Part shown: piece by piece, positions 5,155 to 62,949 of the stretch
Numbering within the stretch: the first letter of the stretch is position 1
Layout of the letters: each line of letters begins with the position of its first letter
Assembly: GCA_951406725.2 (NCBI GenBank)
Contig: OX597815.1
Span: forward strand, 214,830,001 to 214,894,000
Direction: 5' to 3'
DNA: 64,000 nucleotides
Origin: Octopus vulgaris
Taxonomy: Eukaryota
Position numbers and translations under genes: made by a program
The notes under the pieces: model-generated
The model's database searches: none
What the model was told of the DNA's origin: nothing
What the model saw: only the letters and a program-made list of their open reading frames with translations

Positions 5155-5411
5155 TGTTGTGTCTGGGAAGAGTCATATTGTCTTAGTACCTTATTATCTA
5201 ACACACTCACTGGTTCAATTTCCACTCATTTATTTTTTCCTTTCAAAATTTTTGTTGCTTTTGCAACTTTGTCAACATCCATTGACAAGGTTGCAAAAGC
5301 AGCAAAAATTTTGGAAGAAAAATATATAAATAATAAATGAGTGGAAATTGAACCAGTGAGTGTGTTAAATAATAAGGTACTAAGACAATATGACTCTCCC
5401 CAGACACAACA
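5155..5411. repeat. Foldback palindrome, about 120-bp arms, 6-nt loop
   Basis: 5155-5275 is the reverse complement of 5282-5411 with few mismatches and indels. Confidence 0.95.
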
Positions 5412-5422
5412 CTTATGACATT

Positions 5423-5535
5423 CATCATCATCATCGTTTAACATCTGTTTTCCATGCTAGCATGGGTTGGACAGTTCGACCAGGGTCTAACCTATGCTAG
5501 CATGGAAAAACGGACGTTAAACGATGATGATGATG
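5423..5535. repeat. Small foldback of two inverted family-E SINE tails
   Basis: catcatcgtttaac..ccatgctagcatgggtt pairs with aacctatgctagcatgg..gttaaacgatgatg. Confidence 0.85.
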
Positions 5536-5811
5536 GTGGTGATGATGATATTGTCTTATAAATACTCATTTTCTATTCATTATTTCATCTGCCCATAATA
5601 TTACTGCTTTTATTAATTTAAGTTAACTTTTGTAACAAGTAGAAAAGGTACCATTCCATACCTTTTTGTCCAACCTATTACCTCTGTCTTTTGGCTAATA
5701 TGCTTTGTCCTACATCAACTGTATTTGTTGGCATAAAAAACATACAGGCATATTGAAGCGCCACAATTTCAATAGCACATATTTAAAAAGTCTTTTGTAA
5801 TGCATTAATGT

Positions 5812-6291
5812 CATCATCATCGTTTAATGTCTGTTTTCCATGCTAGCATGGGTTGGACGGTTCAACCAGGGTCTGGGAAGCCAGGAGGCTGCGCCAGGCT
5901 CCAGTCTGATCTGGCAGTGTTTCTACAGCTGGATGCCCTTCCTAACGCCAACCGCTCCTTGAGTGTAGTGGGTGCTTTTTATGTGCCACCGGCACAGGGG
6001 CCAGAGGAGGCTGGCAAACGGCCATGATCAGTTGGTGCTTTTTATGTGTCACTGACACGGACACCAGTCAGGCAGCGCTGGCATCAGCCACGTTTGGATG
6101 GTGCTTTTTACGAGCCAGCGGCACAGGTATCACGACTACAATTTCCATTTGATTTTGATTTTGATATTGATGTTGACATACTTGACTCAAGTATGTCAAC
6201 ATCATCATCAAAATAAAAATCAAATGGAAATTGTAGTCGTGATACCTGTGCCGCTGGCTCGTAAAAAGCACCATGCAAACGTGGTTGGTGC
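5812..6291 (-). mobile_element. SINE family E ((GAT)n tail, internal 60-bp units) with a palindromic 5' inversion at 6081-6291
   Basis: Conserved GGTTGGCGTTAGGAAGGGCATCCAGCTGTAGAAA box and tail. Near-perfect palindrome centred on 6186. Other copies lie at about 13750-14135(-), 14593-14955(+), 15335-15550(-), 18390-18600(+), 33506-33723(+), 39380-39600(-), 41290-41790(+), 48952-49143(-) and 56253-56637(+). Confidence 0.85.
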
Positions 6292-6940
6292 TTTTTACGT
6301 TCGGATATGTAATATTTAAAGCACCCTTGCATATAAGACCGAAGATAATTTCCTTTTGGAAAAAAAAAAAAAAGAACGTGTTTTATATATCATCATATAC
6401 AGCAATGGTTCTCAACCGGGGCCTATATGACCCTTGGGAGTTCATATAGGATTTTGTTGTTAAAGTTTGCGTGTAATAAATGGATTATATTTCTGCAATT
6501 CACAAAATATTTTAACAATTTTTTTATACAACTCCTAATATTTTATTATATGAATCACTGCTATCTCTAACAGTCAAGTGTCCATCATTGACAAGATCAA
6601 GGGAGTCCAAAATGATATGTGATGGATTTATCTCCCCACTAGCAATATAAACAAGTGTGCTTTTTGCTCCCTAAGCTATTGTGAGAGTTTCTTTCATAGT
6701 AACTACTGCAGTATAGCTTGTTCCAACAGAACATCCACATTTAGGTGGGGATATTACTTCTCAGGATTTAACAAGTATTTAACTCTGTAGTTAACAAGAT
6801 AGTGAATATGTGTCGGGGTGTACCTTCAAATTACAGAGAGGTGTATATAAGTGAAGTGACGGATGGGATGAGTGGGTGGGTGGGTAAGTTCATGTAAAAG
6901 AAGAGTATGAGGTAGAGGGGAAGTGACTTCAATGGACTTT

Positions 6941-7201
6941 AAAATAAATAAATGCGCCCTTTTAAAGCCTAGCCAGGCTCATGGGCCAGGTTGTCTTGGT
7001 TTCCATGGCGTATGTGTTCCCTAGCTGGATGGAACGCCAGTCCATTGCAGCATTGCTCATTTTTGCCAGCTGAGTGGACTGGAGCAATGTGAAATGAAGT
7101 GTTTTGCTCAAGAACATAACGCGTCGCCCGGTCCAGGAATCGAAACCACAATCTTACAATCATGATGCTGACACCCTAACAACTAAGCCACGTGCCTCCA
7201 C
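6941..7201 (-). mobile_element. tRNA-headed SINE family C (Meta/V-domain-like)
   Basis: tRNA-like head, GATGGACTGGCGTCCCGTCCAG-type core, and TSD TCAATGGACTTT at 6929-6940 and 7202-7213. Confidence 0.9.
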
Positions 7202-7739
7202 TCAATGGACTTTTCTGTCAAAATATTTATGTAATTAAGAAAGGCATGAATGTCAAACAACTTCATTTCTCCTCTCTTGTAAGTCTAAGAAGCTTAATGC
7301 CTACAGAAGAAATAAAACTTAACCTGTTAAGTAAATTACATAAGGTTCTTCACATTATCTGAACATTATTTTATTAATTCCCTCTCTCTCTCTCTGTCTC
7401 TCTCTCTATCTCTCCCTCCCTCTCTCCTCACCCTGTGTGTGTGTGTGTGTGTATGCATGTTTATTCTTTTCATCTATTTCTAAGGCAGTGAGCTGGCTGA
7501 ATCGTTAGCACACCAGTCAAATTGCTTAGCAGTATTTCACCCATCTTTATGATCTAGGTTCAAATTCTGCTGAGGTCGACTTTGCCTTTCACCTTTTCGG
7601 GGTCAATAAATTAAATATCAGTTGGACACTGGTGGGGGAAGGTGTCAATGTAATCAACTAACCTTTCCCACCAAAAATTCATATCAAATAGAAAGGATTA
7701 TTATCTCTTTCTTTCTTTTCTCTCAACTCTCTCACTAAT

Positions 7740-7803
<64 letters not shown>

Positions 7804-7807
7804 CATA

Positions 7808-8193
7808 GGCGTAGGAGTGGCTGTGTGGTAAGTAGCTTACTTAAAAACCACATGGTTCCAGGTTCAGTCCCACTGCATGGCACCTTGGGCAAGTGCCTTC
7901 TACTATAGCCTCGGGCCGACCAAAGTGGATTTGTGAGTGAATTTGGTAGATAGAAACTGGAAGAAACTAGTCATATATATATATGTATGTATATATGTTT
8001 GTCCCCCCAACATCGCTTGACAACCGATGCTGGTGTGGTTATGTCCCTGTAACTTAGTGGTTCGGCAAAAGAGACCGGTAGAATAAGTACTAGGCTTACA
8101 AAGAATAAGTCCTGGGGTCGATCTGCTCGACTAAAGGCGGTGCTCCAGCATGGCCACAGTCAAATGACTGAAACAAGTAAAAGAATAAAAGAG
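7808..8193 (+). mobile_element. tRNA-headed SINE family A (CR1-like tail)
   Basis: Head TGGCTGTGTGG..GGTTCAGTCCC, CCTTGGGCAAG box, internal (TA/TG)n, and tail GGCGGTGCTCCAGCATGGCCACAG..CTGAAAC. Other copies lie at about 16548-16975(+), 19559-19961(+), 20729-21095(-), 30198-30588(-), 30820-31217(+), 35283-35672(-), 44549-44907(-), 45206-45573(+) and 58329-58725(-). Confidence 0.9.
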
Positions 8194-8454: not shown

Positions 8455-8483
8455 ACTACTACTGTTGCAGCTATACACTAAGA

Positions 8484-9177: not shown

Positions 9178-9840
9178 TGGTGAGCTGGAAGAATCGTTAG
9201 CACATCAGGCAAAATGCTTAGCAGCATTTCGTCCATCTTTATATTCTGAGTTCAAATTCCGCTGAGGATGACTTTACCTGTCATTCTTTCAGGATTGATG
9301 AAATAAGTACTAGTGAAGTGCTGTAATCGATGTTCCCTTGAAATTGCTGGCTTCATGCCAAAATTTGAAACTAATTATTGATTAAAAGAAAACAGCAAGC
9401 TGGCAGAATTGTTAGCACAACAGGTGAAATGCTTAGTGGTATTTCATCCATCTTTATGTTCTGAGTTCAAATTCTGATGAAGCCAACCTTGCCTTTCATT
9501 CTTTCAGGGTCGATCAAATAAAGACCAGTTGAGCACTGAGGTCAATATAATTGACTTTCCCTTATCATGAAATTACTGGCCTTGTGCCAAAATTTAAAAC
9601 AAATATTACTAATTAAAAGAAAGCAGCAAGCTGTCAGAATTGTTAGCACAACAGGTAAATGCCTTGTGGTATTTCGTCCGTCTTTACATTCTGGGTTCAA
9701 ACTCCACCGAGGATGGTTTTTTTGCCTTTCATTCTTTCAGGATCAATAAAACAAGTACCAATTGAGTTCTGATATCAATGTAATTGATTTGCTTTTCCCT
9801 TGAAATTGCTGGCCTTGTGCCAAAATTTGAAACCAATATT
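9178..9840 (+). repeat. Head-to-tail triplication of a family-B SINE (about 215-230 bp unit)
   Basis: Units start at about 9180, 9396 and 9626, separated by the same ATTAAAAGAAA linker. Confidence 0.85.
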
Positions 9841-9956
9841 GCAAATTAGAATAATATTAATTTCTGATTTAGCTATAGGGCTTCCAATTTCTAAGGATGG
9901 TTATCAGCATTATTAAATTGACCCTAGTTATTGTCAGGTGAAATAAGATATGATCT

Positions 9957-17596: not shown

Positions 17597-17782
17597 ATTA
17601 TTTAAAACAGTTTCATTTGGTTCCATGCAACTTAAAGTTTTGCAGGCTTCTAACAGAAGAACATCTCTTTCAGGCTTCAGGTTACCAGTTTGGTAACCTA
17701 AAGTCTGAAAGAGACTGTCTTCTGTTAAGAGGCCTGCGAAACTTTAAGCCACCTAGAACTGAACCAAACTGTTTGAAATAAT
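17597..17782. repeat. Foldback palindrome with a decayed hammerhead-like motif
   Basis: About 90-bp arms around a GTT loop (17688-17690). The right arm reads CTGAAAGA..CTTCT-GTTA-AGAGG..GC-GAAAC-TTTAA-GCC; the other arm has GTT at the last triplet, giving consensus GTC. Confidence 0.8.
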
Positions 17783-25097: not shown

Positions 25098-26082
25098 ATC
25101 TAGATATTGATTTTAGGAATAAAAAAAATTTTTAATGGAAAGAGCTTGTGAGGTTGGTGGTGTGGAGAATAGGCATGAGTTGAATGTTGAGAACAGCAAA
25201 AGATTTGTCATTTGTGCTACCATTGTGAGTGGATTAAGAAAATTAGGAAGTATAGTGTCACACTGATTTCCAAAAGAAGCAAATTGGGGTACATACCAAG
25301 TGATAGTAGGTCAAATTAAGTTTTAAACATATTAGTTTTGCTCACAGTATAATAGCAGTTGTAATGATCTGAAATGATTTCCCTGTAACTAATAACACAT
25401 AATGTGACCTTACAATAAATGTTTCTCTCAAGGAAATTTAAGTATCTAATTAATGATAACATCATATAACATAATATATAATCCTTTCTGCTGTAGGCAG
25501 AAGGCCTGAAATTTTGGGGGAAGAGGATAGTCAATTACATTGACCCAGGTACTTATTTCATCCACCCCAAAAGGATGAAAGACAAAATTGACCTTTGCAG
25601 AATTTGAACTCAGAACGTAAAGACAGATAAAATACTGTTAAGCATTTTGCCCAGTGTGCTAACAATTCTGCCAGCTGGACCAACTTTATTGTAGTATATA
25701 ATACAAACCAACAAAGGAGGGGTTATGTTATTGCTTGACCTGCTAGAAATAATAGCCAATTTTTGTTTAAAATGTAAATGATCTTTAAAAAGTGGTAGGC
25801 TACAGTTTTAAAAAAGAAGAACAGTGCAATCAATTGTCTCTGCTCTTGAAAAAAATAAGAGGAAAGAACACATTGAATCTGAAATGCAGTTCCCCTATGT
25901 CACAGCTGCCATTAAAACCCACAGGATTTAATCCATTTAGAGCCACTTAATTAATCTCACTATTCACAGAGAAAGCATAACATTATCTCTTTACCTTGTA
26001 ACATTATCTTGGCTGATGGAAGAAAGTATTTGAGTTGATAGAATTATTTTAACATGTATTATTTGCTTTATGTCTGTTACAG

Positions 26083-26233
26083 ATAGCCAGAGAGTGGTTA
26101 TTCTACCAGATGCAGTGAGTGCTAAGGCCCAGAGATTTCTCAGAGAGAACATTGACATTACATTTCTTGCTACATTAAAGCAAGAAATTGGAGATAGTGG
26201 AAGCATTTTGTCACTCTCGACAGGCATTAACAG
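26083..26233 (+). CDS. NELL: NELL-family protein (protein kinase C-binding NELL1/2-like), internal exon, TSPN/LamG domain
   Basis: ttacag acceptor and gtacaa donor; 151 nt, phase 1 to 2. Encodes (D)SQRVVILPDAVSAKAQRFLRENIDITFLATLKQEIGDSGSILSLSTGIN(R), similar to vertebrate NELL2 DTPRSIKA..FTILVTLKQ..NSGVILS. It splices in frame to 36722. Confidence 0.85.
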
Positions 26234-28043
26234 GTACAATATTCCTTAGTTTTTGTTGTTTTTTTTTTCTGTGGATTTAAAGCTGTTATGGCATGGTGAT
26301 GTGTTATCTGTGGACCCAGTGTGTGGCCTATTGTTAATTATTTTTGTTTTTTTATAGCCACTTATATTTAAGTAGCTAAATAATGTTAAGAGATACTTGG
26401 TCCTCAAAACTCCTCATTTCTTCTATTAATCTCAGATTTCGTAAGTAATTATTATTTATTGGCAAATAGAAAGAAACTAATGCATGCTAATTTATGTGAA
26501 TTCATGTGAGATAAACTTTCCTTTTCCTCACAGCAAAGTAATATCTAAAAAGGCTTGCTAGTCTACCTCATAGTTCCAGCAACAATGGAAAAGGTGTTAC
26601 TCCAGAGGATGGCTGGAACAGCCACTCTGACTCATAGGACTCGCATTTGTAGATAGCCATCTCTCTTCCGATAGTAATGAGGAGAAATATAGTCCAGGGG
26701 CTGAGAATGCTGAAATTTCCTCTACAATAGGCTCCACTGTAAACCTGTTAGAGAAGCATAACTTATCTTGGAAATTTTTAATTTTATTCTTTTTCCATCA
26801 TAAACATGTAATGTAAGCATTCAAACATCATCAAATATCTTTCCAAATCTTGTTGCATTTCACTTGGAATTTTTGATCCTCCAAAGTTGTTATTTCTTTA
26901 TTGCCCACAAGGGGCTAAACATAGAGGGGACAAACAAATACAGACAAAGGGATTAAGTTGATTAGATCGACCCCAGTGCATAACTAGTACTTAATTTATT
27001 GATCCCAAAAGGAGGAAAGGCAGAGTCAACCTCAGCGGAATTTGAACTCAGAACGTAGCGGCAGACAAAATACCGCTAAGCATTTTATCCGGCGTGCTAA
27101 CGTTTCTGCCAGCTTGCCGCCTTAGCTAAGGTTTCTGCCAGCTCGCCTCCAAAGTTGTCTTGAAGAATCAGTCAACCTTTTTTTGGCAATGGTAGTCACT
27201 GTATATGAATTTATTTTTCTTGACATTTATCTGAGAAGTTGAAGAACCCATATATCTCATTTTAGTCTCCTTAGACTATAAGTTTATAGATATTATGTTA
27301 ATGTGTTAGCACAATTAATGTTCTGTTAATTATCAATGTGTTATTATAGGATGATCATTGAAGGGATAATGTAAATGCAAAAGATATCCCAGAAAAGGGC
27401 AATCTTGGAGAAGAGGGGTAGAATAGGGCCTGGAAGTTGACCTTTTAACCAGGAGAGTAAAGCTGTGATCATCTCCCTTTACCAGGCCTCTGAGACTAGG
27501 GACAGAAAAGAGGTAGCTATCCTCAAGCCAAAGGTAGCCTAAACACTTGTAATAGTGTGGGCTTCGCTAAAGGCACCTAAGATGTTAGATTGGGCATGGG
27601 CAATCTTTTTTGAGAAGCAGGTCACATGAGACAAGGTTCACCATCAGGTGAGCTGTACTACTGAAAGAATTCAAGCCAATTTTTGATTAGGCATGCTATT
27701 CAGAATTCAAAAAGCCCTATGAGCCACAGTTTGCCTGTGATTGTACTAGATGGTAGTGTTAAACCAAGTGACGGATAAAGCCTATCATTCAAATAGGCTT
27801 TGATGAGATTTGAACTCGGGACATAAAGTGCCAGAACAATTACTCCCCAATACATGACATCCAGTACTCTACTGTTTCTACCAGTCAGTCCACCACTTTA
27901 GAATATTACTTTATATATCAACCCCAGAAGGATGAAAGGCAAAGTTGACCTTGGCAGGATTTGAACTCAGAATGCTAGGTACTAGAAAAAATATCACAAG
28001 GTATTTTGTCTGAAACTAATGACTGCTCATTTGCCTACAAAAT

Positions 28044-32172: not shown

Positions 32173-32331
32173 TTATCTTGGTCAAGTTAGTCTTGCTATA
32201 GTGAGTAACACCTGTAAGTGCACAGTGTCTTCAGGAAAGTTATGACTTATAACATAAGTCATAACTTACCTGAAGACCCTGTGCACCCACAAGTGTAACT
32301 CAGAGTAGCAAGACAGACTTGGCCAGAATAA
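32173..32331. repeat. Foldback palindrome with a decayed hammerhead-like motif
   Basis: About 78-bp arms with loop 32251-32253. The right arm reads CTTAC-CTGAAGA-CCCTGT..ACAAGT-GTAAC-TCAGA-GTA-GCAAG. Confidence 0.8.
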
Positions 32332-33084: not shown

Positions 33085-33088
<4 letters not shown>

Positions 33089-33444
33089 AGTAGTTGAATG
33101 AATTATCTTATTAAGGATAATTCGAATTAACCGATACCTGGGTAGCAATTTCACATTAGAAAAAACACGGTTGAAGTTACGTGCCTAGGGGATAGATTAC
33201 GTGCTTTTGTGTGGAAATTTGTATGTTTATTTTGTAAATATAAATATATGAAAGAATGGAGCTGAACGACGAAGTAACAAAATTCCTTTATTTTCGACAT
33301 ATGTTTCGAAGGCTGCATATTCCTAATTGCGAAGGAATAAGGAGTACATTATGCCGCTTTCTCATCAGGAAAAGCAAGGAACATATGTCAAAAATAAAGG
33401 AATTTTGTTAATTCGTCGTTCAGCTCCATTCTTTCATATATTTA

Positions 33445-35703: not shown

Positions 35704-35841
35704 GTGAGGTTGCTAAGTAACTTGCAAACTAGTGAGGTTGCTAAGTAACTTGCAAACTAGTGAGGTTGCTAAGTAACTTGCAAACTAGTGAGGTTGCTAA
35801 GTAACTTGCAAACTAGTGAGGTTGCTAAGTAACTTGCAAAC
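35704..35841. repeat. Perfect 28-bp minisatellite, 4.9 copies (GTGAGGTTGCTAAGTAACTTGCAAACTA)
   Basis: Units start at 35704, 35732, 35760, 35788 and 35816. Confidence 0.95.
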
Positions 35842-36485: not shown

Positions 36486-36721
36486 TGATTAGATGAGAGT
36501 AGTGGTTAATGTAGTAAGTGATGAACAAAAGTGGAGGTGCTGCTTGATGGAAAGTATCTGTTTGGAAGGTGGGGGTAAGGTGAGTGTGATAGAAGTGATC
36601 CAAGGATGATAGATCAGGAAATAGGGGATGACTGTTTAGGTTGGTGAAAATTATTTCCATTGTGTTATTTCTACTTATAATGTTTTTTTTTTCTGCTCTT
36701 CTCTTTGCATTTGCCGGACAG

Positions 36722-36992
36722 GATTCTCGAAATTGAAAGTAGTGGCAGGAGGAACGAAGTGAGGTTTTATTACACACATGACCAAAAAATACAAATTGAA
36801 ACATTCCCTTATAAACTTGCTGACAATCATTGGCACAAATTAGCACTAAGCCTAAGTGCAACAGACCTCACCTTATTTGTAGACTGTGAACAGATCTATA
36901 GACGAGTCATACTGACGTTGGACACAAATTTTAAAGCTGACAAAATATCACTGTTTTTAGGTCAACGTAACAGAGAATATGCACATTTTCGG
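36722..36992 (+). CDS. NELL: NELL-family protein, internal exon, TSPN/LamG domain
   Basis: Polypyrimidine tract with acag acceptor and gtaagt donor; 271 nt, phase 2 to 0. Encodes ILEIESSGRRNEVRFYY..ETFPYKLADNHWHKLALSLSA..LFVDCEQIYRRV..LFLGQRN..HFR, closely matching vertebrate NELL2 YLELESSGHRNEVRLHY..EVFPYILADDKWHKLSLAISA..DCNKIYERV..WLGQRN..YFK. Confidence 0.93.
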
Positions 36993-46744: not shown

Positions 46745-46956
46745 TACATGGAGTTAAATATATGTCCGGTCATAGAGTGACCAATGGTTTTGCACCCATA
46801 AAGTGCTTTGCTTTATAGAGGGCTTGTCTGACTTTAATGGCAGAAGGCATATGTCTTCTGTCATTTGAGTCTGACAAGTTGTCTACAAAGCTGAATACTT
46901 TATGGGTGCAAAAACATTGGTCACTCTATGATCAGACATATATCTAACTACATGTA
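46745..46956. repeat. Foldback palindrome with a decayed hammerhead motif in both arms
   Basis: About 105-bp arms centred on CATATG (46848-46853). The arm consensus is GAGT-CTGACAA-G..ATAAAG-loop-CTTTATGGGTGC-AAAACC-ATT-GGTC-ACTC. Confidence 0.85.
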
Positions 46957-47191
46957 TAATGTATTTACGTTACTGGTCTATCTTTTAGAGTGTGCTTTTT
47001 GTTGGATATATGTGGGTGTGTGTGTATATATATGAGGGAATGAACAAATAGAAAAAGTGACACTCAATACATTTGGAAAGTGTTACATATAAGTTTTAAT
47101 AACAGTTCAATTCTTCTTCCAATATCTGATAAGATGGGTTTATTCTATATGTTCATGAAACTTTTTGTCATATGGAGCTGAATCAAACTGT

Positions 47192-47224
<33 letters not shown>

Positions 47225-48600: not shown

Positions 48601-49146
48601 TATATATATGTGTGTGTAACATTGATTCATTTAAAGCCACTGCAAAAATTTTATTTTTGCTCTATCTTTTATACAAAATTCCATTGTGTATGGGTCATTG
48701 TTACTGTGATATAATCATATTCTAGGTTCATGTTGGTGTAACATAGTTATATATTCAACTATGTGTGAGTCATATCATTGTAACACAGTAACTTATTTGA
48801 CTGATATTATGTGAGAAGTTACATTGTGATACAATGATATGATTTTCTGATTTGCTCCCTCTACGATATGCTTTCTAGTCCTACAAATTTAAAGTGCTGG
48901 AAAATAGAGGCAATTAGTCTGTGCAAAAGTGGAAAGGCTGGCATGTTGAGATATCATCATCATCACCATCATCATCATCGTTTAACATCCGTTTTCCATG
49001 CAAGCATGGGTTGGACGGTTCAACCGGGGTCTGGGAAGCCAGGAGGCTGCACCAGGCACCAGTCTGATCTGGCAGTGTTTCTACAGCTGAATGCCCTTCC
49101 TAATGCCAACCACTTCGTGAGTGTAGTGGGTGCTTTTTACGTGTAC

Positions 49147-50674: not shown

Positions 50675-51238
50675 TTGGGTTGTCCAGAAAGTTCGTGCCG
50701 ATTTATAGTAGCTTACCTTTTGACTTATTTTAGAACATGGTTGTTTCCATAAAACAGGATTTGACTACACCTCCATTTAGAGAACAGTTTAAGCTATCTT
50801 TTCATGAAAGGAGGTTTATGTTCCTATAACCTGTGTTAATTCTGTATCCCTTTAAAATGGAAGATAAGAAAGTTCATTTTCGGCAATTGATGCTTCAAGA
50901 ACCAGACAAAAATTGCTGAAGTTCGGCTGGGATGTTACCCCACCCTCCATATTCGCCAGATATTGCTCCTTTGGATTTCCACTTATTCAGGTCTCTGCAG
51001 AATAGTCTTAATGGTAAAAATTTCAATTCCTTGGATGATGTAAAAAGATACCTTGATGAATTCTTTGCCATGAAACCACCTCAATTCTGGGAAGAGGGTA
51101 TTTTCAAGTTAAAGGAAAGATGGAGATGTATTGTACAACAAAATGGTGCATATTTGGTTCATCAAAAATGTAATGGTAAGTATTTATTGACCTTTTCCTT
51201 TCCTTTAAAAATCAGCACGACCTTTCCGGACAACCCAA
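50675..51238 (+). mobile_element. Internally deleted mariner element (DD34D type)
   Basis: TIRs TTGGGTTGTCCRGAAAG.TCGTGC.GATTT with TA TSD. The N-terminus MEDKKVHFRQLML is joined directly to the C-terminus PHPPYSPDIAPLDFHLFRSLQN..ERWRCIVQQNGAY. Confidence 0.92.
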
Positions 51239-53210
51239 TATTATCATTTTCATCAACATTTAATATCCGTATAAATGTTATACTATTACTATAACATTTT
51301 CTGGTATAATTTTTCATATGAGAATTTACAACCAAAAAAGGATAGGTCATCTTACACATCAAGACATCTTTGAACAACCAAAAATTCCATGTGAAATGTA
51401 GCAGGATTTTGGTAAAATAGTGATGATGTTTGAATGTTTACATTTCAGGTTTGCCATGATGTCATATAACAAAAATTTTAGTTAACTGTTAATTCTCTTT
51501 ATACTTATTTTAGTGTTCATGTTAATGTGTGATTATAACCACAAATAAAGGCAAACATTAAAAATCAAATTTGAAATAATTAAACATTATTTCAAATGGA
51601 AATTTGTGGGATTTTTTTCCCTTTAGCTTTATGTAATACACATAAAGTTAAATAGCTGAGTAGGTCTTCAAAGTTATAACTAAAATAGGAACAGTAAATA
51701 ACACTTACTTACAATCACTATGTACATCATGACAGCTGAAAGAATGTACTTCATTCAAGAAACAAGCGACTAGAGATGAAGATTATGTAGATCTTGGATC
51801 TCTTCAAACTGATTTAGGAACATACACTAATAGAGTCATGTCTTAGAAATGCATTAGAAAAGTCCATACTTGCCATATCTATAAAATCCCCCCCCCCTGG
51901 TAAAACTGGACTTCAACTTAGTGACCACTATTACACATTTCTACAGCTCTTCACCAGCTTTTTTTTTTATTTTAATATTGTACATATATAGATTTAACAC
52001 TACTTGAGTTTCTACTGGCTTTCTCAGTTTTTTATGCAATGACTACGGCTTTTAGTCAGGTCATAAGGATGAGCTTCCTTGAATTTAGTTGGCATTTTAT
52101 TGAGATGTCATTCAGACTAATGATTAATGTTTGTAAAACCTATTTCTTTACTACCCACCAGGGGCTAAACACAGAGAGGACAGACAAGGACAGACAAATG
52201 GATTAAGTCGATTATATCAACCCCAGTGCGTAACTGGTATTAAATTTATTGACCCCGAAAGGATGAAAGACAAAGTCAACCTCAGCAGAATTTGAACTCA
52301 GAACATAACGGCAGATGAAATACGTCTGTGCATTTTGCCCAGCGTGCTAACATTTCTACCAGCTAAATTGTCTGCCAAATCATCAAATTCAAATATTCAA
52401 TAAAATTTCTACCATTTTGTTTTGATAGTGAGAAATTTGTCTCTAGCATAAAAGAGATTAAACAAAAATTTTCAGTTTTCTGTAACACCTATATATACAG
52501 TTTTACTATGGTCTTCCTCATTTCTGTGAAACTTGCAAAAATATCTTGATTTCATTCACCAATTTTGCATAGTAGAAGTAGTGGTAGTGATGATGGTTAT
52601 AGTGGCAGTGGTGGTGGTGCAAATTTCACTTTATCAGCTGACTCAACATTCCCAACAGCCACCAAAAGTTATGTAAAAATCTTCCCTCCTTGAACAGATG
52701 CCATCAGTTTATCAGGTAAATTAACACCAGATATAAGGTTAACAGCCAGGAATAGATATTCAGCTACTTAATAGTATTTGTTAGACAGCAAAGTTACTCA
52801 TTCAATTAATTACTTCAATTAAAATCTGTAAGTGATTCACTACCAGCTACATTACTATCAAAGAAAATAGGAGCAATGAAGCACCATGAGTACGTATAGC
52901 ATACTTTGATAAAGTAAGTATTCTGATTCATCAGACATATCTGTTATCTTGTTATAACTACATGTTTCATACTTCACAATTATTACCCAGGCTGCAAACT
53001 AAAACTGTTCTTTTCTCAAGATAAAGACTGCAGACAAACTGACTCTCATCTTTAGCTGTACATGTGTCAGTGATTCTTTTTTCTTTATCGTTTGTTGTCA
53101 GTTTTTTATAATGTCCATTTTTCCATACTTGCATGGATCAGATTGAGTTGTATTGAAGCAGATTTTCTGTGGCTGGACGCCCTTCCTGTCACCACTTTTT
53201 ACACAATAAT

Positions 53211-53300
53211 ATCAGGTCATCCCATAAGTTCTGTCTGATTTTTACCTTTTTTAAAATTGAATGAAGTTTAATAGTATTTTAGAATGTCTAATGGAATTAA
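53211..53300 (+). mobile_element. Mariner-like single TIR fragment
   Basis: TA-TCAGGTCATCCCATAAGTTCTGTCTGATT; no partner end was found. Confidence 0.35.
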
Positions 53301-54489
53301 AAATTATTTTTATGCATTTGTGTACATTTAAACTAATGAAATATTATTTTACAGAATAATAGAATTAAAATGTCTATTATTCTGTAGAATAATAGACAGA
53401 ATACTTTTTTTTACAAATATTTGCGAAGAGTTTTGGAAAGTAGTAATTTGCATAATTAAAAATAGAAAAAAAAATGAAATAAATAAATCGAGTGAGCTAG
53501 TGGTATGTTGTTAGATAAATATGAGATGATGTACTGAATGAAATGCAGATAATTCTCAATTAATTGTAATTTTCCCCTTTGTTGAGGAAAGAAATCTAAA
53601 ACTTAGCAGTAATTGTTAGTGATGCTAATGAAAAATGGAATAATTTCAAGTCTTTGAGAATTAATCACACAAAATGTCTGTGTGCCTTGGATGGAAATCT
53701 GATCTTTATTTGCAGGTGATGTGGTGGTGGTGGTGGTGGTGGTGGTGGTGGTGGTGGGCAGTCAGTCAGTCTTACTGACACTCACAAGGCAGCGAGCTGG
53801 CAGAATTGTTAGGACAACAGGCAGAATGCCTAGCTGCATTTTGTTTGTCTTTGCATTCTGAGTTCAAATCCCACCAAGGTTGACTTTGCCTTTCATCTTT
53901 TCAGAGTCAATAAAATAAGTACCTGTTGAGTGCTGGGGCACTGAAGTCAATCCAATCAACCTATCCTTCCCCCAAATTGTTGACTTTGTGCTAAAACACA
54001 AAAGCAATCTTGCTGGACCTCATCAGAAAAGCTGCTTTGATCAACAAAAGAAATTAAAATTTAGTATTAGTTGTTTGTAATTCTAAAGGAAGTGGGAAAT
54101 AAATTCATGCACTGTGCAAGCAAACAAGGGCCCTTCTCCACAGTTCCACTTCTGCCTCGACATCATAGTCAAATCTGCATCACCAAATTTCACCTTTACC
54201 ATCTTCAAAATGGGGGAATAATGTGTTTTGACACAAGCTGTTTAATTAACTGAACAACTTGCTCATTGACTTAACATGTAAGTGGCTGAGTATTCCACTG
54301 GTATGTGCACCCTTAATGTGATTCTCAGGCTGGACCAAGCATGTGGAAAAGGTGTACCATTAAATTATAAGTTCAAAAACTCCTCTGGTTGCCATTTTCC
54401 CAGTTTCATTCCTGAGTCAACCTAAGAATGCAAAGCATACTTCTTAACCATTCAAAATCATTCAGCAGCCACTTATTTACTGCTCATAC

Positions 54490-54900
54490 ATATATGTTAT
54501 TACTTAGCCATTCCCTTCCTCCCTATGGAGTAAAGGCCATCACCACTTTTTCTCCCCCAACACAGAGCTGTCTTTTCTGCTTCTCTCCAGCTGTACCCCT
54601 GCTTTTTCCACTCAGTCTTAGTCTGTATTTTGCCTATATTTCTGTGTTTCCCTGGAGGATGGCTTCCTTTTCTCTGGTCCTGTTGGTTTTGAATTGTCAT
54701 TGATGCTTCTGTAACTTTGTTTTTCTAGATGGAGCTGTTGGCCCTACACAAGCCCATTTTTACCCCAGGTTGGGGTTGTCTATATTAGTTTGGCCTCTAT
54801 CTTTTGATCTGTCCAGTATAGGACACCCTACCATAAGATTGCATTTCACTGGCATAGTTTTTATTGTCATCGAGGTACACAAGCCCCCAGACTGCAACAA
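54490..54900 (-). mobile_element. Internally deleted RTE derivative (5' UTR joined to 3' end)
   Basis: An RTE-type 5' UTR (GGGGGCTTGTGTACCTCGATGAC..ATGGTAGGGTGTCCTATACTGGACAGATCAAA) is followed by GYSWREAEKTA..GLYS, resembling the RTE C-terminus. Confidence 0.55.
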
Positions 54901-56586
54901 TGCCTGCATATTGTATATTATGCAAGTTTAAGGGAAGACAACTCTGATTACAATACACAAACATTGCATTGTGCCTTCAAGCAAGACACAACTTTTTGTT
55001 TACCTCAATCTGCCACTCCTCTTCATAGCTGAGTTGTCAAGAAGGTCATCCAGCATTCAAATACTTAACTTAAACAATTTGAACATGTAAAAATAAAAAA
55101 AAGAGAGATGATATCAAAGTTATGCAAGCGTGGGAAAAAGAATTTATAATTGTAATAAAAATGTACAGACAAATTTATTCAAAAAGTTACATGGTACATT
55201 GAGGTGTTGATAAATACACAAACAATATAAATTATTGAAATTCGTTTCAAAGGAGGAATGACATGCATTGTATAAACTTTATAATTTAATTCATGAAACC
55301 ACGTTTTGTCAGTCTTGAGCCAAGTACTACTGCCTTTCCTTAAAAATGATACATTTCATATGTTTTTGTGATTCCTTGTATTAATTAGTTCTGCAAGTTT
55401 CTGCTTGACCAAATCTAAGTGCACAGATGTGATGAAGTTTACTTTCTTTTTGTGTTAAACTTATTTTACCAATTCCAACACTTCGTAAACATTATGCAGT
55501 TCATAGCTTTGTAAATTTCTTGGTGAAAAATTTCTGCAAAGAAATATTTGTTTCAACAACATATTTGCTTCAAACAACATTTACTCAGTGTATATTACCA
55601 AGAGGTAGGTGATATATGGAAACCTGTAGTTATTCAACTGGCTATACAAGTTTAACACCATCACCTGATACATGGGTGTCTTTTACGCATCCTCTCTGTT
55701 ATAGGATGTGTTTGAGTCAGGGCTCATCTCTGAAAATAACTTTCTCTTAATCAGCCTTGGAAGCCTTGAAAAAATTCAAAAACCATATATAGTGCTATTC
55801 TTCTATTTCGTGTTACAGCTAGAGGGAGAGAGGGCTGCACCAGTTCTCAGTTGGTACTCATTATTAGATTGGAGCAACTGTGCTTTGCTCAAAAACACAA
55901 TGCACTCCCACCTTGTCTTGAAATTAAACCCACAATTTTACAATCATGAACCCAACATCCTAACCTGTAAGGCGCATACCTGCTAAGTACCACTACCCAT
56001 ATCCCTCTTTATCTAAGTATCATTGCTGATATCCTTAATTACCTTCATTACTGATATCTACTGTTACTTAAGTTTCATTATAGATATTGCTGGCACACTT
56101 TAGATTGTAGACAATATTAATGAGAGCCTTTTTATGGCTATTATTTTCTGAGATATTACTGAGGATTTTCTCCTTACGTTGTTAGATGGGACTGTGTTTA
56201 TTCATTCATTGTTAGGATTTTTTTTTTTTTTTACTGCTGAACGTCTTTCCTAAAAATTCAAATGGAAATTGTATTTAAGACACCAGTGCCGGTGACATGT
56301 AAAAAGCACTGTCCAAACGTGGCAGATACTAGCGTCACCTGACTGGCATCCGTGTCGGTGACATGTAAAAGTACCAACCGATCGTGGCTGTTTGCCAGAC
56401 TCCCCTGGCTCCTGTGCTGATGGCACGTAAAAAACACCCACTACACTCATGGAGTGGTTGGCATTAGGAAGGGCATCCAGCTGTAGAAACACTGCCAAAT
56501 CAGACTAGAGCTTGGTGCAGCCTCCATGGCTTACCAGACCCCGGTTGAACCGTCCAACCCATGCTAGCATGGAAAACGGACGTTAA

Positions 56587-56640
<54 letters not shown>

Positions 56641-57462
56641 TACTCAACTGTTTAGTGGTAAAGCCTATTGTGGCAGAAGAGTTCTTTGTTTCGTTTTCCT
56701 GTCTATGCAAGGCTGATTTCATGTGGAATCAGCCTTGTTGAAGTAGACCTATTATCAAAGAAAGTCTAGATATGCCCAATCTAGATTTTCAGGCATAAAT
56801 TACTTCAAACTACATTATCCAAAGAGCACCTTTCTCTTTTTATCAAAACAAAAAAGAAGACTACTATGTGAGTGATTTGAGAAAGATTTAGTCATTATTT
56901 CTTGTAGGTTGAGTGACCACATTGAGGCCCTCTCCTCATTGGCTGGCATGCTCAAAAGAAACAATACAATAGCTGAAGTAGCAAGGTTTGAACTCCTGAC
57001 CATGTGGTCAGTAGTCCAACACTTTAGCTCCACAACTATAACAATCACAACAGTGATTCCTAATGATTTAAGTAGATTATATAAATTAACCACTTGAGGA
57101 TTGATACAGAAAAATACATATTGTAGACAAAAAGTTTGTAACCACATTGATTATTTGAGAGCTTTTCTTTCCATTTTTTTAGTTTTTATGATTTTTGTTG
57201 TTTTTTTTTTCAAGGTGGTGGTTATAAAAAAAATATTTGCATCCCTTATTTTAAACTTTTGGCTTGGAACCAGAAGTGAAATGTCAGATAAAGTTCTTTT
57301 GAGGAAAAACTGCACGAATAATCCTAGACATGATGTTACAGGTTTGGCAGAAGTCAGAAAATATAACTGTCTGAAACAGACATTGAGATTACTTCTACAA
57401 CAATGTTGTTTGTGTTGTTGCTCTTGCTACAGTTATTGCTTTTACATTTTTTTAAAAACTTT

Positions 57463-57658
57463 AAAAACCGTTAGATTCACTTCAACATTTAAGTTTAATT
57501 TGTCAAAATGTTTTCGTCGCTTTGAGACCACAACCTGCTCACTGACAAAATTCCGTGCTGCATCTCAGAATTTTGTCAGTGAACAGGTTGCGGTCTCAAA
57601 GCGATGAAAATATTTTGACAAATTAAATTTAAATGTTGAAGTGAATCTAACGGTTTTT
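57463..57658. repeat. Foldback palindrome, about 91-bp arms, 14-nt loop
   Basis: 57463-57553 is the reverse complement of 57568-57658. The apex reads CTGACAA-AATTC-loop-GAATT, possibly the 5' half of a hammerhead. Confidence 0.92.
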
Positions 57659-59368
57659 GTGTGTTTCTTAAATGGCTTATAAACACCTTTCACGCTGCAA
57701 TTGTTTTCGTTCCAGCACATGATCTCAGATCAGGTCACTTGCTATGCAAGTACATCTCCATGAAAACTTTTATTTCATCAATTAATAATGATTCTTAAAC
57801 AGAACTTAAGATAGAGGCAAGCAATGGTGTATTCCACTAGCTTAATATTCATGAAACACTGGCTAACTAAAACATTTCCCTTTTTTTTAAGCGTTAAACT
57901 AATACAGCATGTGTTAAAATCTGTCTCTCCTGTGTTGTCTTCTTTTTGTACTCATTGCCTTAACATACAGCATTAATGAAATTAATCAGAAGACTATTAC
58001 ATATAAAACACTAATCAATCAGTTCTAATGTAATCAAAAAGTTTTGATGCGATCAATCAGTTTTGATGTGATCGATCAGTTTTAATGTGAAGCAGAAACT
58101 TCTGGGACGAGTTCATGTAAAGTTTCAAGTGCTTCTGGCTGATGAGATACATCGAAACAGAATCTTTTGTGCCAATGAGCCAAGTATGTTATAAAAACAG
58201 TCATCGTAAAAGAGAGAAGTTCTCCTGTGACATACACAACAGCAACTAGCATATTTGCATTTGAATCTCCTTGAAAGTATTAAGAATAAATATGCAAACC
58301 ATCATTTCAGATCTTGGTGTATACACACTTTACTCTTTTACTCTTTTACTTGTCTCAGTCATTTGACTGTGGCCATGCTGGAACACCGCCTTTAGTCAAG
58401 CAAATCAACCCCAGGACTTATTCTTTGTAAGCCTACTACTTATTCTATCGGTCTCTTTTGCCAAACCGCTAAGTTACGGGGACGTAAACACACCAGCATC
58501 GGTTGTCAAGCGATGTTGGGGGGACAGACACAGATATAAGCACATGCATATATATACATATATACGACAGGCTTCTTTCAATTTCCGTCTACCAAATCCA
58601 CTCACAAGGCTTTGGTTGGCCTGAGGCTATAGTAAAAGACACTTGCCCAAGATGCCACACAGTGGGAATGAACCTGGAACTATGTGGTTGGTAAGCAATA
58701 CTACTTACCACACAGCCACTCCTGCAAATAACAATTGTTTAATCAATGTTAGGGATGGTAAAAAACCCCAACTCTTACTGCTCTGTGTTCCTATATAACT
58801 GAGGATGCCATTGGATGTCTTTTGTTTGCAATACATTCTAGATAGGATCTCACTGCACCTATTTTGACCCTCTCTCCATTCCTCTTTTGTGCAACTCACC
58901 GGTACAGGATCCATTTCCTTTTCATTCACTGTGCCACCACCCTCATCACTCCAGCCCATCTTATTTCCTGTATATAGGTGGCTACATCAGACCCCTGATT
59001 TACAGCTCACTCTACTTTCACCCTGCCTTCCTGTACAGCCTGACCCCGGTCTCATGTCAATCTCTCTACCAGCATACTTGTATTTCTTTCCTTTTACACA
59101 TCCTGGATCTCCGTCATCACTCTGTCTCCTGGGTCACATAGGCTTCTGTCACCTCCCTGCCATCTCAGTCATGTTGCCTTGTATACATGTACCTCTCTCA
59201 AAATACTGAATTCTCTCATCAGTCCATCACTTATCCCATATCTCTCTCATCACTATCATTTACTCTTCTGTCACTCAAGTTTTTCATGCTGTAAAGAGGC
59301 AAGCAAGACAGCAGAGATGTAGAGATGTGAGGTTCTTTTAGTCATGACAAAAACATGCTTACATTATT

Positions 59369-59581
59369 TACATTATTCACATTCGACGGATATTTGTCCT
59401 CATCTTGTTTGTTGTTGTTAACACATTTCGGCTGATATACCCTCCAGTCTTCATCGGATGTCTTGGGGGAAATTTCAAACCTGGCTTCTCATTCCTAAGG
59501 TATTTTTCGATGTTATTATTATTATTATTATTGTTGTTATTATTATTATTATTATATTTATTATTATTATTATTATTATTA
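59369..59581 (-). mobile_element. Left outer arm of a tRNA/(AAT)n/hammerhead foldback element, split by Dong
   Basis: 59369-59520 is the reverse complement of about 62780-62929; hammerhead relic at 59420-59462. Confidence 0.85.
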
Positions 59582-62536
59582 TCTTTTTTTTTCTTCTTTC
59601 AAATTTGCTTCCATTTCTTGCCGAGTGTCTTCCCGACTCCTAGGGCAGAGAAACTCATAGTATACATTGGTAGTCCATTACACTAAACTCACTAGTTCGT
59701 TCATTTTTTTTTTTTTTAAGTTAAATTAAAATACATCGACAATGCTCTTCTCAATACGTGTGATGTACCAGTTAAGACAATCTTTTGCACTTCTTGCAGG
59801 GATGGTAAGCCAGGGATAATTCTCATATAATTTTCGGTTCCCTTCTTGATCATTCCTAGTGCTCCTACGATCACTGGTATTGTAACCACCTTGAGATGCC
59901 ACATTTTCTCAATTTCAATGAGTAGGTCTTTATACTTTCTGAGCTTGTCAAACTCTTTCACTGAGATATTATAATCACAAGGGATGCTCATGTCAATCAA
60001 TAAGCAAACTTTATTGTTTTGGTCTTTCACAACAATATCTGGTTTATTGGCCTTGATGGTTCGGTCTGTATGTACTGGAAAGTCCCACAGAATGGTTACA
60101 TTTTCTCCTTCAGTTACAGCCTCAGGGTGGTGATTATACCACTTGTCGGCAGTTTTGATATTGTAATGCCGACTTATTAGCCAGTGTAGATATTGGCCAA
60201 CTCTGTCATGTCTTAATTTATACTCCACTGGTGCTAAAACTTTACATCCAGAGATTAGGTGGTCCACTGTTTCAATCATGTCGTTGCAGAATCGGCATTT
60301 TGGGTCTGCTCCATTTTTCATCACATTGGCCTGGTAGTTCCGGGTTAATAGGCTTTGATCTTGAGCAGCCAGGATGAAACCTTCACTCTCTGCTTTTAGC
60401 CCTGAGCTCCGTAGCCACTGATGGGTTTGCTTCTGGTCAACATCAGCTTGTTTGCTGCGGTTCACATATTTGCCGTGCAGAGGTTTCTCCTCCCACCTAT
60501 CAGCCAATAGCTCGTGTGCTTTTTTCGTTGCCATTATTTTCACCTTCTTTGCTGTACTTCCCTCGGGTTGTTCAGTTTGGGTATCCTGCACGAGATCAAT
60601 AGCAAATTTTTTGCTTTCCTTTATGATAGAATGAAGCTTCTTTCGTCTCTCGTGATTTTCCACGAGCTTTAGCATCCAGTCATTTGTTATTTCGAGATAT
60701 TTGGCCAGTCCAATTGTGGTTGTTTTGTAAGCTAATTCAAATTGGATCAGGCCTCGACCTCCTTGGGCTCTGGGAAGGTAAAGGCGATCTACGTCTGCCT
60801 TTGGGTGGTGCATCCTATTACAACTCAGCAGCTTGCGTATTTTCCTATCTATATTCTTTACTTCACTCATATTTCAGTTCAACACATTGTAGCTATAAGT
60901 AACAACTGGAACTGCTAAGGAATTTATAGCTAACACCTTGTTACGTGCATTTAGTTCAGATTTCAGGACTGCACGAACTCTCCTATAACATTCCTTCCTG
61001 ATCTTCCATTTCATGCTTGCATGCTGAATACCAGAGCCTTCATTTATCCCTAAATATTTGTAAGTTTGTTCTTGCTCAAGCTCTCTTATGACTGTGTCAA
61101 CATCTAACACGACTGAATTTGTGGTCTTCACTTTCCCTTTCTGGAAAGTGGCCTTGGCACACTTTTCAAGTCCAAACTCCATCCCGATGTCATCACTGAA
61201 TGCTTTCACAGTGCGCAATAGGCCTTCAAGTTCATTATTGTCTTTACCATAAAGTTTTAAGTCATCCATATAAAATAGATGGCTTATTTTTTTATTGGCA
61301 ATTTTATACCCATACCCTGTTCTGTTTAATTCACTTGTAAGGGGTATTAGGGCTATGCAGAATATTAAAGGTGAAAGTGAGTTACCTTGATAAATTCCAC
61401 AGTTGATGTTTATATTTTCTGAGGCAAGTACTCCATTAGAGTGGTATAATTGGAGATTCGTATTCCACAACGACATATTGTGCTTCAGGAAGTTTGAAAT
61501 CACAGGGGAAATTTTGAAGATGTCCAGCGATCTCAAGATCCATGGATGCGGTATACTGTCGAAGGCCTTTTTATAGTCAATCCATGCGGAGCTGAGATTT
61601 CTGCTCTTGTTGTGACAGTTCTCAAGGATCATACGATTAATTAGCAGTTGATCTTTGCATCCGTATGAGCCTCGGTGGCACCCTTTTTGTTCAATGGGGA
61701 AAATATCGTTCTTCTCCATGAATGCGTATGTTTTCTCCGCCAGGATAGATGTTAGGATTTTATACGTGGTGGATAGACAGGTTATAGGCCGATAGTTTTT
61801 TGGAAGGTTGGTTTCGTTATTCTTTGGGAGTAGGTAAGTAATACCACTTGCTAACCATTCAGGTGTTTTCTTTGGGTCTCTCATAATTCCATTGAGCAGC
61901 TGAACTAGCTCACCGTGTGCGCATGGGAGCGATGCGAGCCAGAAATTCGGCACCCTATCTTTACTGGGGGATTTCCAATTATGGGCCTTCGTGAGTGCCT
62001 TTCTTAGGTCTGCTATTGTGATGTCTTCCCATGCTTGTTGTTGTAAATTTTGGTAGGATCCTTCAGTTTGTATAATCCAGTCTGCATTTATGTTGTACGT
62101 CTTCTTGTCACTCCAAATCCTTTTCCAAAAGTTTTGAACTTCATCCATGGGAGGGGGGTCTTTAACGGTTACTTTCTCCTTCCCTATTTCTCTGTAGAAT
62201 TTTTTGGCATTGGATGTGAACAGCTTATTTTGCTTGTAAAACTTGTTTCTCTTCTCAAATCTTCGTATTCTTTGGGCTTTTGCTTGGACTTTTTGTTTCA
62301 GCGTTTCTTTTATTGATATCAGTTCTTCTCTTGGTGAGGATCCAAATTTTCTCTTCATCTTTCTTCCTGTTCTGGATCTTACATCATTCCCACATATTAG
62401 TTCATTTAATATTGATATTTCCCCTCTCATAAATTCAATCTCTTTTTCAATTTTACTTCTCCAGGTTTGATTTCTTCCCAGGTTTGGTTTTCTTTGTTTT
62501 TTCGGAGGCATACAGCTGGTTTCAATTGCCGTAGCA

Positions 62537-62538
<2 letters not shown>
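59582..62538 (-). mobile_element. R4/Dong-clade non-LTR retrotransposon (RT, CCHC, REL endonuclease), 5'-truncated, one premature stop
   Basis: ORFs 60874-62511 and 59716-60870 share one frame, separated by a TGA at a Trp-like position. Motifs include YMDD, CRFC-X8-H-X4-C, RHD and KPD..LID..K..KY. It has a 3' UTR of about 135 nt and (TAA)n on both sides. Confidence 0.95.
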
Positions 62539-62578
<40 letters not shown>

Positions 62579-62601
62579 TATTATTATTATTATTATTATT
62601 A

Positions 62602-62641
<40 letters not shown>

Positions 62642-62949
62642 TGTTCAGGTCATTGCTTGGAATTAAACTCGGAATCTTGGGGTTAAGATCACAGGCTACT
62701 AACCCCAAGATTCCAAGTTCGATTCCAAGCAGTGACCTGAACAATAACAATAATAATTATAATAATGATAATAATAATAATAATAACATCGAAAAATACC
62801 TTAGGAATGAGAACCCAGGTTTGAAATTTCCCCAAAACACCTGAAGAAGGCTGGAGGGTAAATCAGCCAAAACGTTGTGTTAACAACAAACAAGATGAGG
62901 ACAAATATCTGTCAAATGAAAATAATGTACATAATTCCTCATCTCTTAA
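62539..62949 (+). mobile_element. Remainder of the foldback element: (TAT)n, inner tRNA-like hairpin, (AAT)n, hammerhead arm
   Basis: 62641-62685 is inverted at 62700-62743 and includes the B-box-like AAGTTCGATTCC. Confidence 0.85.
62836..62881 (+). ncRNA. Minimal type-I hammerhead motif with a G12A core mutation (probably inactive)
   Basis: AACAC-CTGAAGA-A-GGCTG-loop-CAGCC-AAAAC-GTT-GTGTT; the inverted copy at 59420-59462 retains GAAA. Confidence 0.7.

Follow-up and report, generated by a model that had tools for sequence, protein, structure and literature searches.

Introduction

Seven short palindromes, termed E1–E7 in order of position, lie within a 64 kb window of Octopus vulgaris DNA (the whole stretch analysed, 64,000 bp, to which all coordinates refer), and the question that they raise is how they arose. 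An initial annotation made from the letters alone had described them as mutually unrelated foldbacks carrying relics of hammerhead ribozymes. The analysis presented here indicates that they are probably dead-end insertion products of several families of Penelope-like elements (PLEs), in which two 5′-shortened, hammerhead-bearing ends were joined head to head. This insertion pattern is already known; the new points are a natural G3–C8 hammerhead core (E6) and a possible Penelope-borne short interspersed nuclear element (SINE; E7).

Four of the five tested features of a PLE insertion product were found, the full set being shown for E6 only: a hammerhead (six of the seven elements), inverted arms reading outward (seven of seven), a one-sided tail, and a short target-site duplication (TSD) at an AT-rich target (shown in one of seven, E6). 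No open reading frame (ORF) with a reverse transcriptase and a GIY-YIG nuclease was found in or next to any element; the reverse transcriptases of the window are all of the long interspersed nuclear element (LINE) type.

Foldback census

Comparison of the window with itself gave nine self-foldbacks of at least 100 nt, comprising E1–E7 and two others at 5423–5535 and 6081–6291. All seven palindromes of the initial annotation are real, with arms that are 80–97% identical over the aligned letters: E1 (5155–5411, 95.0%, both arms reading outward), E2 (17597–17782, 80.4%, adjoining a (TA)n tract), E3 (32173–32331, 81.0%, adjoining (TG)n), E4 (33238–33447, 97.1%), E5 (46745–46956, 83.0%), E6 (57463–57658, 94.5%, a member of a very high-copy family) and the split E7 (59363–59512 and 62786–62935, 91.1%). 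Together they make up 1,957 of the 64,000 bp, about 3% of the window, at a density of about one foldback per 9 kb in one gene. The long intronic hairpins that had been proposed agree with the predicted folding energies of −96 to −181 kcal/mol. The two additional foldbacks are made from the ends of a common interspersed repeat that terminates in (CAT)n and contains internal units of 61 bp; neither gave a convincing hammerhead on scoring against shuffles.

Hammerhead motifs

A strict canonical hammerhead pattern was scanned over the whole window. It matched once, at 33296–33368 (−) in E4, the element in which an intact motif had been noted. A relaxed score for minimal type I hammerheads was then built on the traits described in PMC4209133, with any Watson–Crick 3–8 pair allowed, and applied to both strands of the 64 kb. 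The top five hits all fall inside the elements (E6 twice, E7, E4 and E1), and a score of 34 was reached by none of 302 background tiles. The sixth-ranked site is only 0.4 points lower and lies in an unrelated repeat, so that single sites are not far above background. Rfam reported no hammerhead family over the window and only sub-threshold hairpin or microRNA hits on the elements.

For each element 400 dinucleotide shuffles and 400 rebuilt palindromes were used as controls, and those reaching the observed score were counted. The counts (dinucleotide/rebuilt palindrome) were 1/0 for E1, 0/0 for each of E4, E6 and the right copy of E7, and 0/5 for E3; they are somewhat flattering, as the relaxed score was designed after the elements had been inspected. 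E5 (38/15), the left copy of E7 (96/137) and E2 (140/127) were not significant alone. In a second test both arms were pooled and CpG decay was reversed, with 150 controls and a column-shuffle null, which is weaker. E5 was then reached by none of the 150 controls and E2 still by 63; the control foldback at 6081 gave 4 and 11 of 150. Six of the seven elements carry outward-reading minimal type I hammerheads above controls, and E2 does not. All accepted motifs read outward, as does the motif orientation in all seven elements.

The enrichment over shuffled controls that the initial annotation had proposed as a check is present in six of seven elements, with a different ranking of the motifs. Those of E1 and E6, previously regarded as partial and tentative, are among the best kept, E1 having a near-complete U3–A8 motif and E6 a complete core in both arms. 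Of the motifs considered repairable, those of E5 and the right copy of E7 held up and that of E2 did not, while the E3 motif, correctly listed as more decayed, still exceeds its controls.

The hammerheads of E1, E6 and E7 have a single base before stem II, and stems I and II form in the predicted folds of these motifs alone; E4 and an unpaired copy near E5 (see below) fold otherwise. The E1 and E6 hammerheads share 19 of 23 nt, so that the seven elements are mostly, though not entirely, unrelated to one another. The longer copy of E1–E6 begins 6–24 nt before the core, partly because of how the elements were picked, and the copies of E7 begin about 160 nt before it. One reading frame in fixed register to the core contains 13 stops against 21.6 ± 4.3 in shuffles (341 codons; 53/2000). 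This weakly suggests a former ORF start, in keeping with the overlap of the pseudo-long terminal repeat (pLTR) and the ORF start in PMC11167929.

The E6 insertion

E6 carries a G3–C8 core in both arms. The left-arm hammerhead, 57499–57549 (−), has a 7-bp stem I, a stem II and U at position 17; the right-arm hammerhead, 57572–57622 (+), has a palindromic helix III. At position 7, which is free, the two arms have different letters. The motif had originally been placed at 57542–57572; this placement is rejected, as it scores 30.0, whereas the outward motifs reach 35.4 and 34.4. In paralogue snippets position 3 is G in both of the two that cover it and position 8 is C in the one that clearly covers it.

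Contigs of four public DNA-type runs (X1, X6, X11 and X13) were aligned to 56650–58330 at 80% likeness. No RNA run was listed for 52500–59300, which says nothing about expression. The summed contig depth was 1.1–4.1 million over 57619–57675 and 5–67 in the flanks, which puts the depth of the E6 family at 4–7 × 10^4 times that of the flanks in three of the four runs and at 2 × 10^5 times in the fourth. Contig depth is not copy number and may be inflated up to about 30-fold by overlapping contigs; even so, the family would amount to thousands of copies, organism E included. The repeat runs on to 57759–57761, about 100 nt past the right arm, and family ends cluster at 57759–57761, 57706 and 57665–57666 among the 24 of 2,245 loose ends listed. 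The one-sided tail, 57659–57762 (+), is thus 104 nt long and belongs to the E6 repeat family.

The insertion site itself was recovered both empty and filled. A 2,882-nt contig, present in both runs of organism E, a relative about 5% diverged, connects 57454 with 57763 without intervening letters, its flanks differing from the window by 5.2% and 4.7%. Contigs of X1 and X6 (organisms A and C) span both insert junctions. The 308 bp skipped correspond to the 300-bp element (57463–57762) and one copy of an exact 8-bp duplication, found at 57455–57462 (+; 10 bp with one mismatch) and 57763–57770 (+). Of 500 random boundary pairs, 17 likewise show an exact 8-mer match, and it is therefore the empty site that proves the TSD. 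The target is AT-rich and adjoins an A/T run. The initial annotation had stated that the elements lack TSDs, which does not hold for E6. It had also contrasted them with miniature inverted-repeat transposable elements (MITEs), which have fixed terminal inverted repeats within TSDs; E6 is bounded by an arm on one side and a tail on the other.

The centre of the palindrome varies among paralogues. The 12 skip joints listed (among 15 of 239 joints) resume at 11 different places within 57590–57694. Of the centre joints of X1, 12 of 135 are listed; in all seven listed with their letters one copy starts at about 57556–57566 and the other anywhere up to 57739. Clustering at the centre in the larger table may arise partly from the reference ending there, so that reliance was placed on joints with short known inserts. 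Since paralogues differ in their fold-back points, the palindrome was likely built at each insertion and not copied whole. Two paralogues have head-to-tail joints (57641 to 57566 and 57585 to 57569). Loose ends in 13–14 contigs of two runs extend the family 5′ of this near-fixed start, into a word resembling a branch point, a run of pyrimidines and AG, which would represent a 3′ splice site. The Penelope element of Drosophila virilis reportedly has an intron end beside helix I (PMC4209133).

Within the region aligned, 58014–58090 is a 19-bp tandem repeat, in which organism E is one unit short (19 letters omitted at 58028). Lower-copy repeats at 56850–56940, 57850–57960 and 58190–58330 reach depth peaks of 1,000–8,000.

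Elements E1–E5

The hammerhead of E1, 5278–5315 (+), is of the minimal type I with a U3–A8 core, a 4-bp stem I, a 5-bp stem II and A in place of G12; its mirror in the left arm lacks the 5′ strand of stem I. A likely one-sided tail lies at 5088–5154 (−). A protein search with the E1 frame gave one match, the 94-residue product of a 959-nt contig (57% over 44 residues), and this match continues about 60 nt past the end of the arm. The product has no known domain, Atlas scores below 0.8 and a single member. A tentative 11-bp duplication with one mismatch is found at 5082–5092 and 5418–5428.

In E4 the hammerhead, 33291–33373 (−), has all core letters, a 5-bp stem I, a long stem II and a palindromic helix III, and the right arm retains the 3′ hammerhead part only. 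Its tail is probably about 150 nt long (33086–33237), judging from the sequence, and element and putative tail together sit between two (TA)n tracts. E3 holds a decayed hammerhead at 32265–32312 (+) with its mirror at 32192–32239 (−). The E5 motif, 46867–46926 (+) and 46775–46834 (−), reaches significance only when the two arms are pooled and CpG decay is reversed. The hammerhead-like relic of E2, 17701–17752, has one extra core base; the E2 tail probably extends to about 17838, as 56 nt of unique sequence precede the next TA tract.

An eighth, unpaired hammerhead relic, 47122–47192 (+), lies 170 bp from E5 and ends at a TA tract. It is related to E2 (78% over 36 nt), a second exception to the supposed unrelatedness, and has no foldback; it carries a near-canonical motif at the place that matches E2. 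An 11-nt opposite-strand match between this copy and E4 was dropped as chance (E = 0.09).

One-sided tails are shown for E6, supported for E1, probable for E2, E4 and E7, and were not seen for E3 and E5. E2, E3 and E4 adjoin TA or TG microsatellites. The TSD search gave nothing clean for E3, E5 and E7 and only tentative candidates for E1, E2 and E4; any TSDs of E2 and E4 would be hidden in the TA tracts.

E7 and its nested LINE

E7 forms a single foldback from two copies, each consisting of a head, a TAA tract and an end of 150 nt. The outer part of the left copy, 59363–59582 (−), consists of a pLTR-like stretch, a decayed hammerhead (59414–59462) and part of the TAA tract. The inner part, 62537–62686 (−), holds the remaining TAA tract and the head, which is truncated. 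Between them a 2.9 kb LINE, 59583–62536 (−), has inserted into the TAA tract, which explains why the element had been reported as split. The right copy, 62743–62949 (+), has the TAA tract, the pLTR-like stretch and a hammerhead at 62836–62881; a short tail likely runs into the neighbouring repeat.

The LINE has a reverse transcriptase (Pfam RVT_1, E = 5e-29), a zinc finger and a C-terminal restriction-like nuclease motif, in two long frames parted by one stop. We take it to be R4/Dong-like from its C-terminal nuclease and TAA target, and not from a tree. Any TSD of the LINE would lie hidden in the TAA tract. Dong-R4 has been reported as active in O. vulgaris (PMC13282606). A second LINE fragment of a similar type, though different, occupies 159–1582 (−; RVT_1, E = 5e-33) and adjoins a TTA tract at 1583–1699.

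The head of E7, 62685–62725 (+), is tRNA-like, with a B-box at tRNA spacing, and is truncated at the fold point so that its 5′ part is missing; the A-box region is absent from both copies. B-box and anticodon-loop letters at tRNA spacing match three times in the window, where 0.12 matches would be expected, and besides E7 they occur in two SINE-like heads; the pattern was chosen after E7 had been seen. ARAGORN predicted no tRNA gene in the head and Rfam no tRNA family. From its sequence, E7 is a possible Penelope-borne SINE with a tRNA-like head. A 16-mer of E7 led to 49 viral loci, of which the longest alignment to E7 was 28 nt, and was treated as chance.

Mechanism and alternative explanations

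A PLE origin would involve the following steps. The GIY-YIG nuclease would make a staggered cut through both strands at an AT-rich or microsatellite target, as published PLE biochemistry suggests. The reverse transcriptase would prime on both cut ends, at different sites close to the RNA's 3′ end, which would give rise to the tail. Both complementary DNAs (cDNAs) would stop early and be joined in the middle; one would usually reach a fixed point about 6–24 nt before the hammerhead core and the other would stop anywhere. Full-length PLEs would provide the protein in trans. Alternatively, self-priming on an antisense template would yield such a product. For E7, and perhaps for E6, a short non-autonomous RNA probably served as the template, the tRNA-like head of the former and the clustered 5′ ends of the latter favouring such templates for these two.

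With the ribozymes on opposite strands, the tandem dimer needed by minimal motifs could not form. In a read-through intron transcript each motif is expected to be buried in a long hairpin, the copies being inert as ribozymes and decaying. The intact hammerheads inside the copies fit the use of uncut RNA as a template (PMC11167929).

Several observations weigh against this origin. The E2 hammerhead does not exceed its controls, and the reading-frame signal is weak and poorly carried by four of the seven elements (E2, E3, E4 and E5). No clean TSD was found for the six elements other than E6, and the tails of E6 (104 nt) and E4 (about 150 nt) are longer than the usual 30–40 nt. Family-level evidence is available for one element in seven, E6. 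No full-length PLE was tied to any element in three protein searches, which is weak evidence. The partner searches for longer proteins gave two candidates for the E6 frame, neither of which scored, and none for the E4 frame. At the DNA level, the E6 pattern was not matched in metagenome and prokaryote contigs or in plasmids, and the E4 pattern was not matched in metagenomes. Finally, the two hammerhead-free foldbacks at 5423–5535 and 6081–6291, which belong to another repeat, indicate that head-to-head duplication is not unique to PLEs in this window; other retroelement machinery may also insert head to head here.

It is these two foldbacks, together with the failure of E2 (140 and 127 of 400; 63 of 150) and the dependence of E5 on CpG reversal, that lend some substance to the idea that certain elements (most of all E2, and possibly E3 or E5) are inverted duplications of a generic kind, derived from other repeats and produced by twin priming of LINEs or SINEs or by repair, with motifs due to chance. 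We consider this rather unlikely, as E3 passes its controls (0 and 5 of 400), E5 passes with both arms (0 of 150) and E2 is related to the unpaired copy at 47122–47192, in which a near-canonical motif stands at the matching place. The variable E6 centres bear on a different proposal, that the whole palindrome, or a retrozyme-like circle made from it, is the unit transcribed and re-inserted. The lack of an ORF, the very high copy number of the E6 family, its clustered 5′ ends and the two head-to-tail joints, which show that partial tandems exist, would all suit such a unit. At least 11 centres among the 12 skip joints listed and the asymmetry of the insert nevertheless make it improbable; in addition, motifs on opposite strands are unable to pair in cis, and none of E1–E7 lies in a head-to-tail array of canonical type I motifs of the kind formed by published non-LTR retrozymes.

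Most improbable of all is that the elements are MITEs of the ordinary kind, or foldback DNA transposons, whose hammerhead-like motifs are due to chance. They are short, lack ORFs and have inverted arms, and an 8-bp TSD suits some DNA transposons as well. In E6, however, one copy of the TSD borders an arm and the other the 104-nt tail; its ends are thus not inverted repeats and this explanation is contradicted; ends and centres also vary among its paralogues, and hammerheads beat the controls in six elements, always reading outward. The initial annotation was thus partly supported in favouring Penelope-dependent or retrozyme-like elements integrating as inverted dimers: head-to-head pairs with outward motifs and a Penelope-type origin agree with the data, and a retrozyme-like unit copied whole does not, given the many E6 centres.

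Gene context and neighbouring features

The elements lie among and around exons of NELL1. One exon translates into 89 residues that are 100% identical to Octopus sinensis NELL1, and two exons were mapped, at 26076–26234 (+; protein residues 67–119) and 36717–36992 (+; residues 118–209, laminin G-like). Residues 1–66 and 210–833 had no match within the window. E3 and E4 lie between the two mapped exons; E1, E2, E5, E6 and E7 flank them on either side and are likely intronic too.

Tandem arrays occur at 9333–9848 (period 233), 35704–35841 (period 28, 100% identical) and 63127–63733 (period 61/122). Short AT-rich palindromes of 35–73 nt at 48770–48842, 53342–53394 and 4928–4962 are without a hammerhead score; the one at 53342 has a candidate 9-bp duplication 78 nt off. 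A 124-residue frame at 50920–51294 (+) had no Pfam hit and resembles, in one motif, the end of a mariner-type transposase.

Implications

Foldback copies of this kind mimic MITEs or microRNA hairpins in annotation, and overlooking the tail puts their ends in the wrong place. The E6 family is young, its junctions number in the thousands and a close relative has empty sites, which makes the formation of inverted structures by PLEs testable; already it shows one arm with a near-fixed start and the other with a free start. A high-copy G3–C8 family would constitute natural confirmation of a tertiary pair that has so far been swapped in this way only in the laboratory, according to the papers searched. 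About 3% of the window is foldback, in a genus with very high RNA editing.

A broader proposal is offered tentatively and is on balance doubtful. Thousands to tens of thousands of SINE-like RNAs in octopus genomes, one of them tRNA-headed and one with a natural G3–C8 core, would hijack PLEs. Because PLE machinery inserts its copies in head-to-head pairs, a ready-made perfect hairpin of 100 bp would come with every jump. PLEs would then be a main source of the intronic double-stranded RNA (dsRNA) behind extreme A-to-I hyper-editing, and the fixed arm start beside a splice-acceptor-like site would record how inverted structures are made.

Comparison with known systems

Inverted 5′-truncated copies and tails of 30–40 nt are described for PLE insertions, the origin of the inverted structures still being open (PMC8557442). 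Head-to-head junctions, TSDs of 8–10 bp and solo pLTRs are likewise on record, together with a self-priming proposal (PMC3846280). The PLE protein cleaves and extends both strands at AT-rich DNA, two internal start sites make the tail, and insertion proceeds without hammerhead cleavage (PMC11167929); targets are AT-rich or microsatellite (PMC8557442, PMC11167929). The octopus copies resemble units of endonuclease-positive PLEs (Penelope/Poseidon and Neptune; Adineta vaga Pen1–6; Anolis PAc) in their head-to-head 5′-truncated pLTRs and one-sided tail, as well as in the 8–10 bp TSD, AT or microsatellite targets and pLTR hammerhead near the ORF start (PMC3846280, PMC8557442, PMC11167929). They differ in consisting of two ends only (160–300 bp), with no reverse transcriptase or nuclease and with tails of about 60–150 nt. 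The suggested abundance is supported by the depth of the E6 family; that the class is an overlooked one is not supported, its insertion pattern having been published. The observations of the initial annotation were largely right and its interpretation right in kind, wrong on novelty and TSDs.

Minimal type I motifs at PLE ends carry an additional base ahead of stem II and a helix III that is palindromic or lacking, a U3–A8 variant is known, and Schistosoma has opposite-strand pairs 100–700 bp apart (PMC4209133). The octopus motifs share with metazoan PLE hammerheads a short stem I, a helix III that is palindromic or absent, diversity within one genome, opposite-strand pairs and, in E1, U3–A8; the G3–C8 core in both arms of E6 sets that element apart. 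Only U3–A8 is reported as natural in PMC3088659, and cleavage of a PLE hammerhead is partly regained in a C3G/G8C laboratory double mutant (PMC11167929). No natural G3–C8 core was found in the literature searched; a survey outside that search, PMC5785218, may list one. Neither palindromic octopus hammerhead repeats nor a tRNA-headed PLE-borne SINE was found in that literature, which did not extend to subscription journals, Repbase/Dfam or the Zenodo library of PMC13282606. Human UCON13 was not used as a palindromic PLE parallel, since the main text of PMC5753468 lists it under Penelope and is silent on palindromes.

Animal non-LTR retrozymes (PMC7229834; bioRxiv 10.64898/2026.07.22.740005) are similar in being short, ORF-less, PLE-related and dispersed, with a type I hammerhead. 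They form head-to-tail arrays that give circular RNAs, whereas the octopus elements are inverted intronic pairs with variable centres; no tandem array was found at any element, only the isolated head-to-tail joints among E6 paralogues. In Xenopus, retrozymes are depleted from introns. The Sm-alpha/Sj-alpha SINE-like elements of Schistosoma (PMC6765202) combine a pol III-type promoter with a hammerhead, comparable to the head, TAA spacer and hammerhead of E7; E7 differs in being an inverted pair with a minimal PLE-type motif and with the A-box cut off in both copies.

The genus possesses PLE machinery: in O. vulgaris PLEs account for 6.83% of the genome in 190 families, and 30 Penelope families were recently active (PMC13282606, in the supplement of which neither hammerhead nor palindrome was matched). 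Penelope is listed as expanded in coleoids (PMC8967140), and the giant squid has 235 hammerhead hits (PMC6962438). A further parallel is provided by the palindromic Harbinger repeats of Xenopus, which are ADAR substrates (PMC5625713). Like E1–E7 they are self-folding repeats, about 200 bp long, and they occur in a species with very high hyper-editing; unlike E1–E7 they are DNA transposons; in the same study octopus shows hyper-editing and an unusually high predicted dsRNA fraction.

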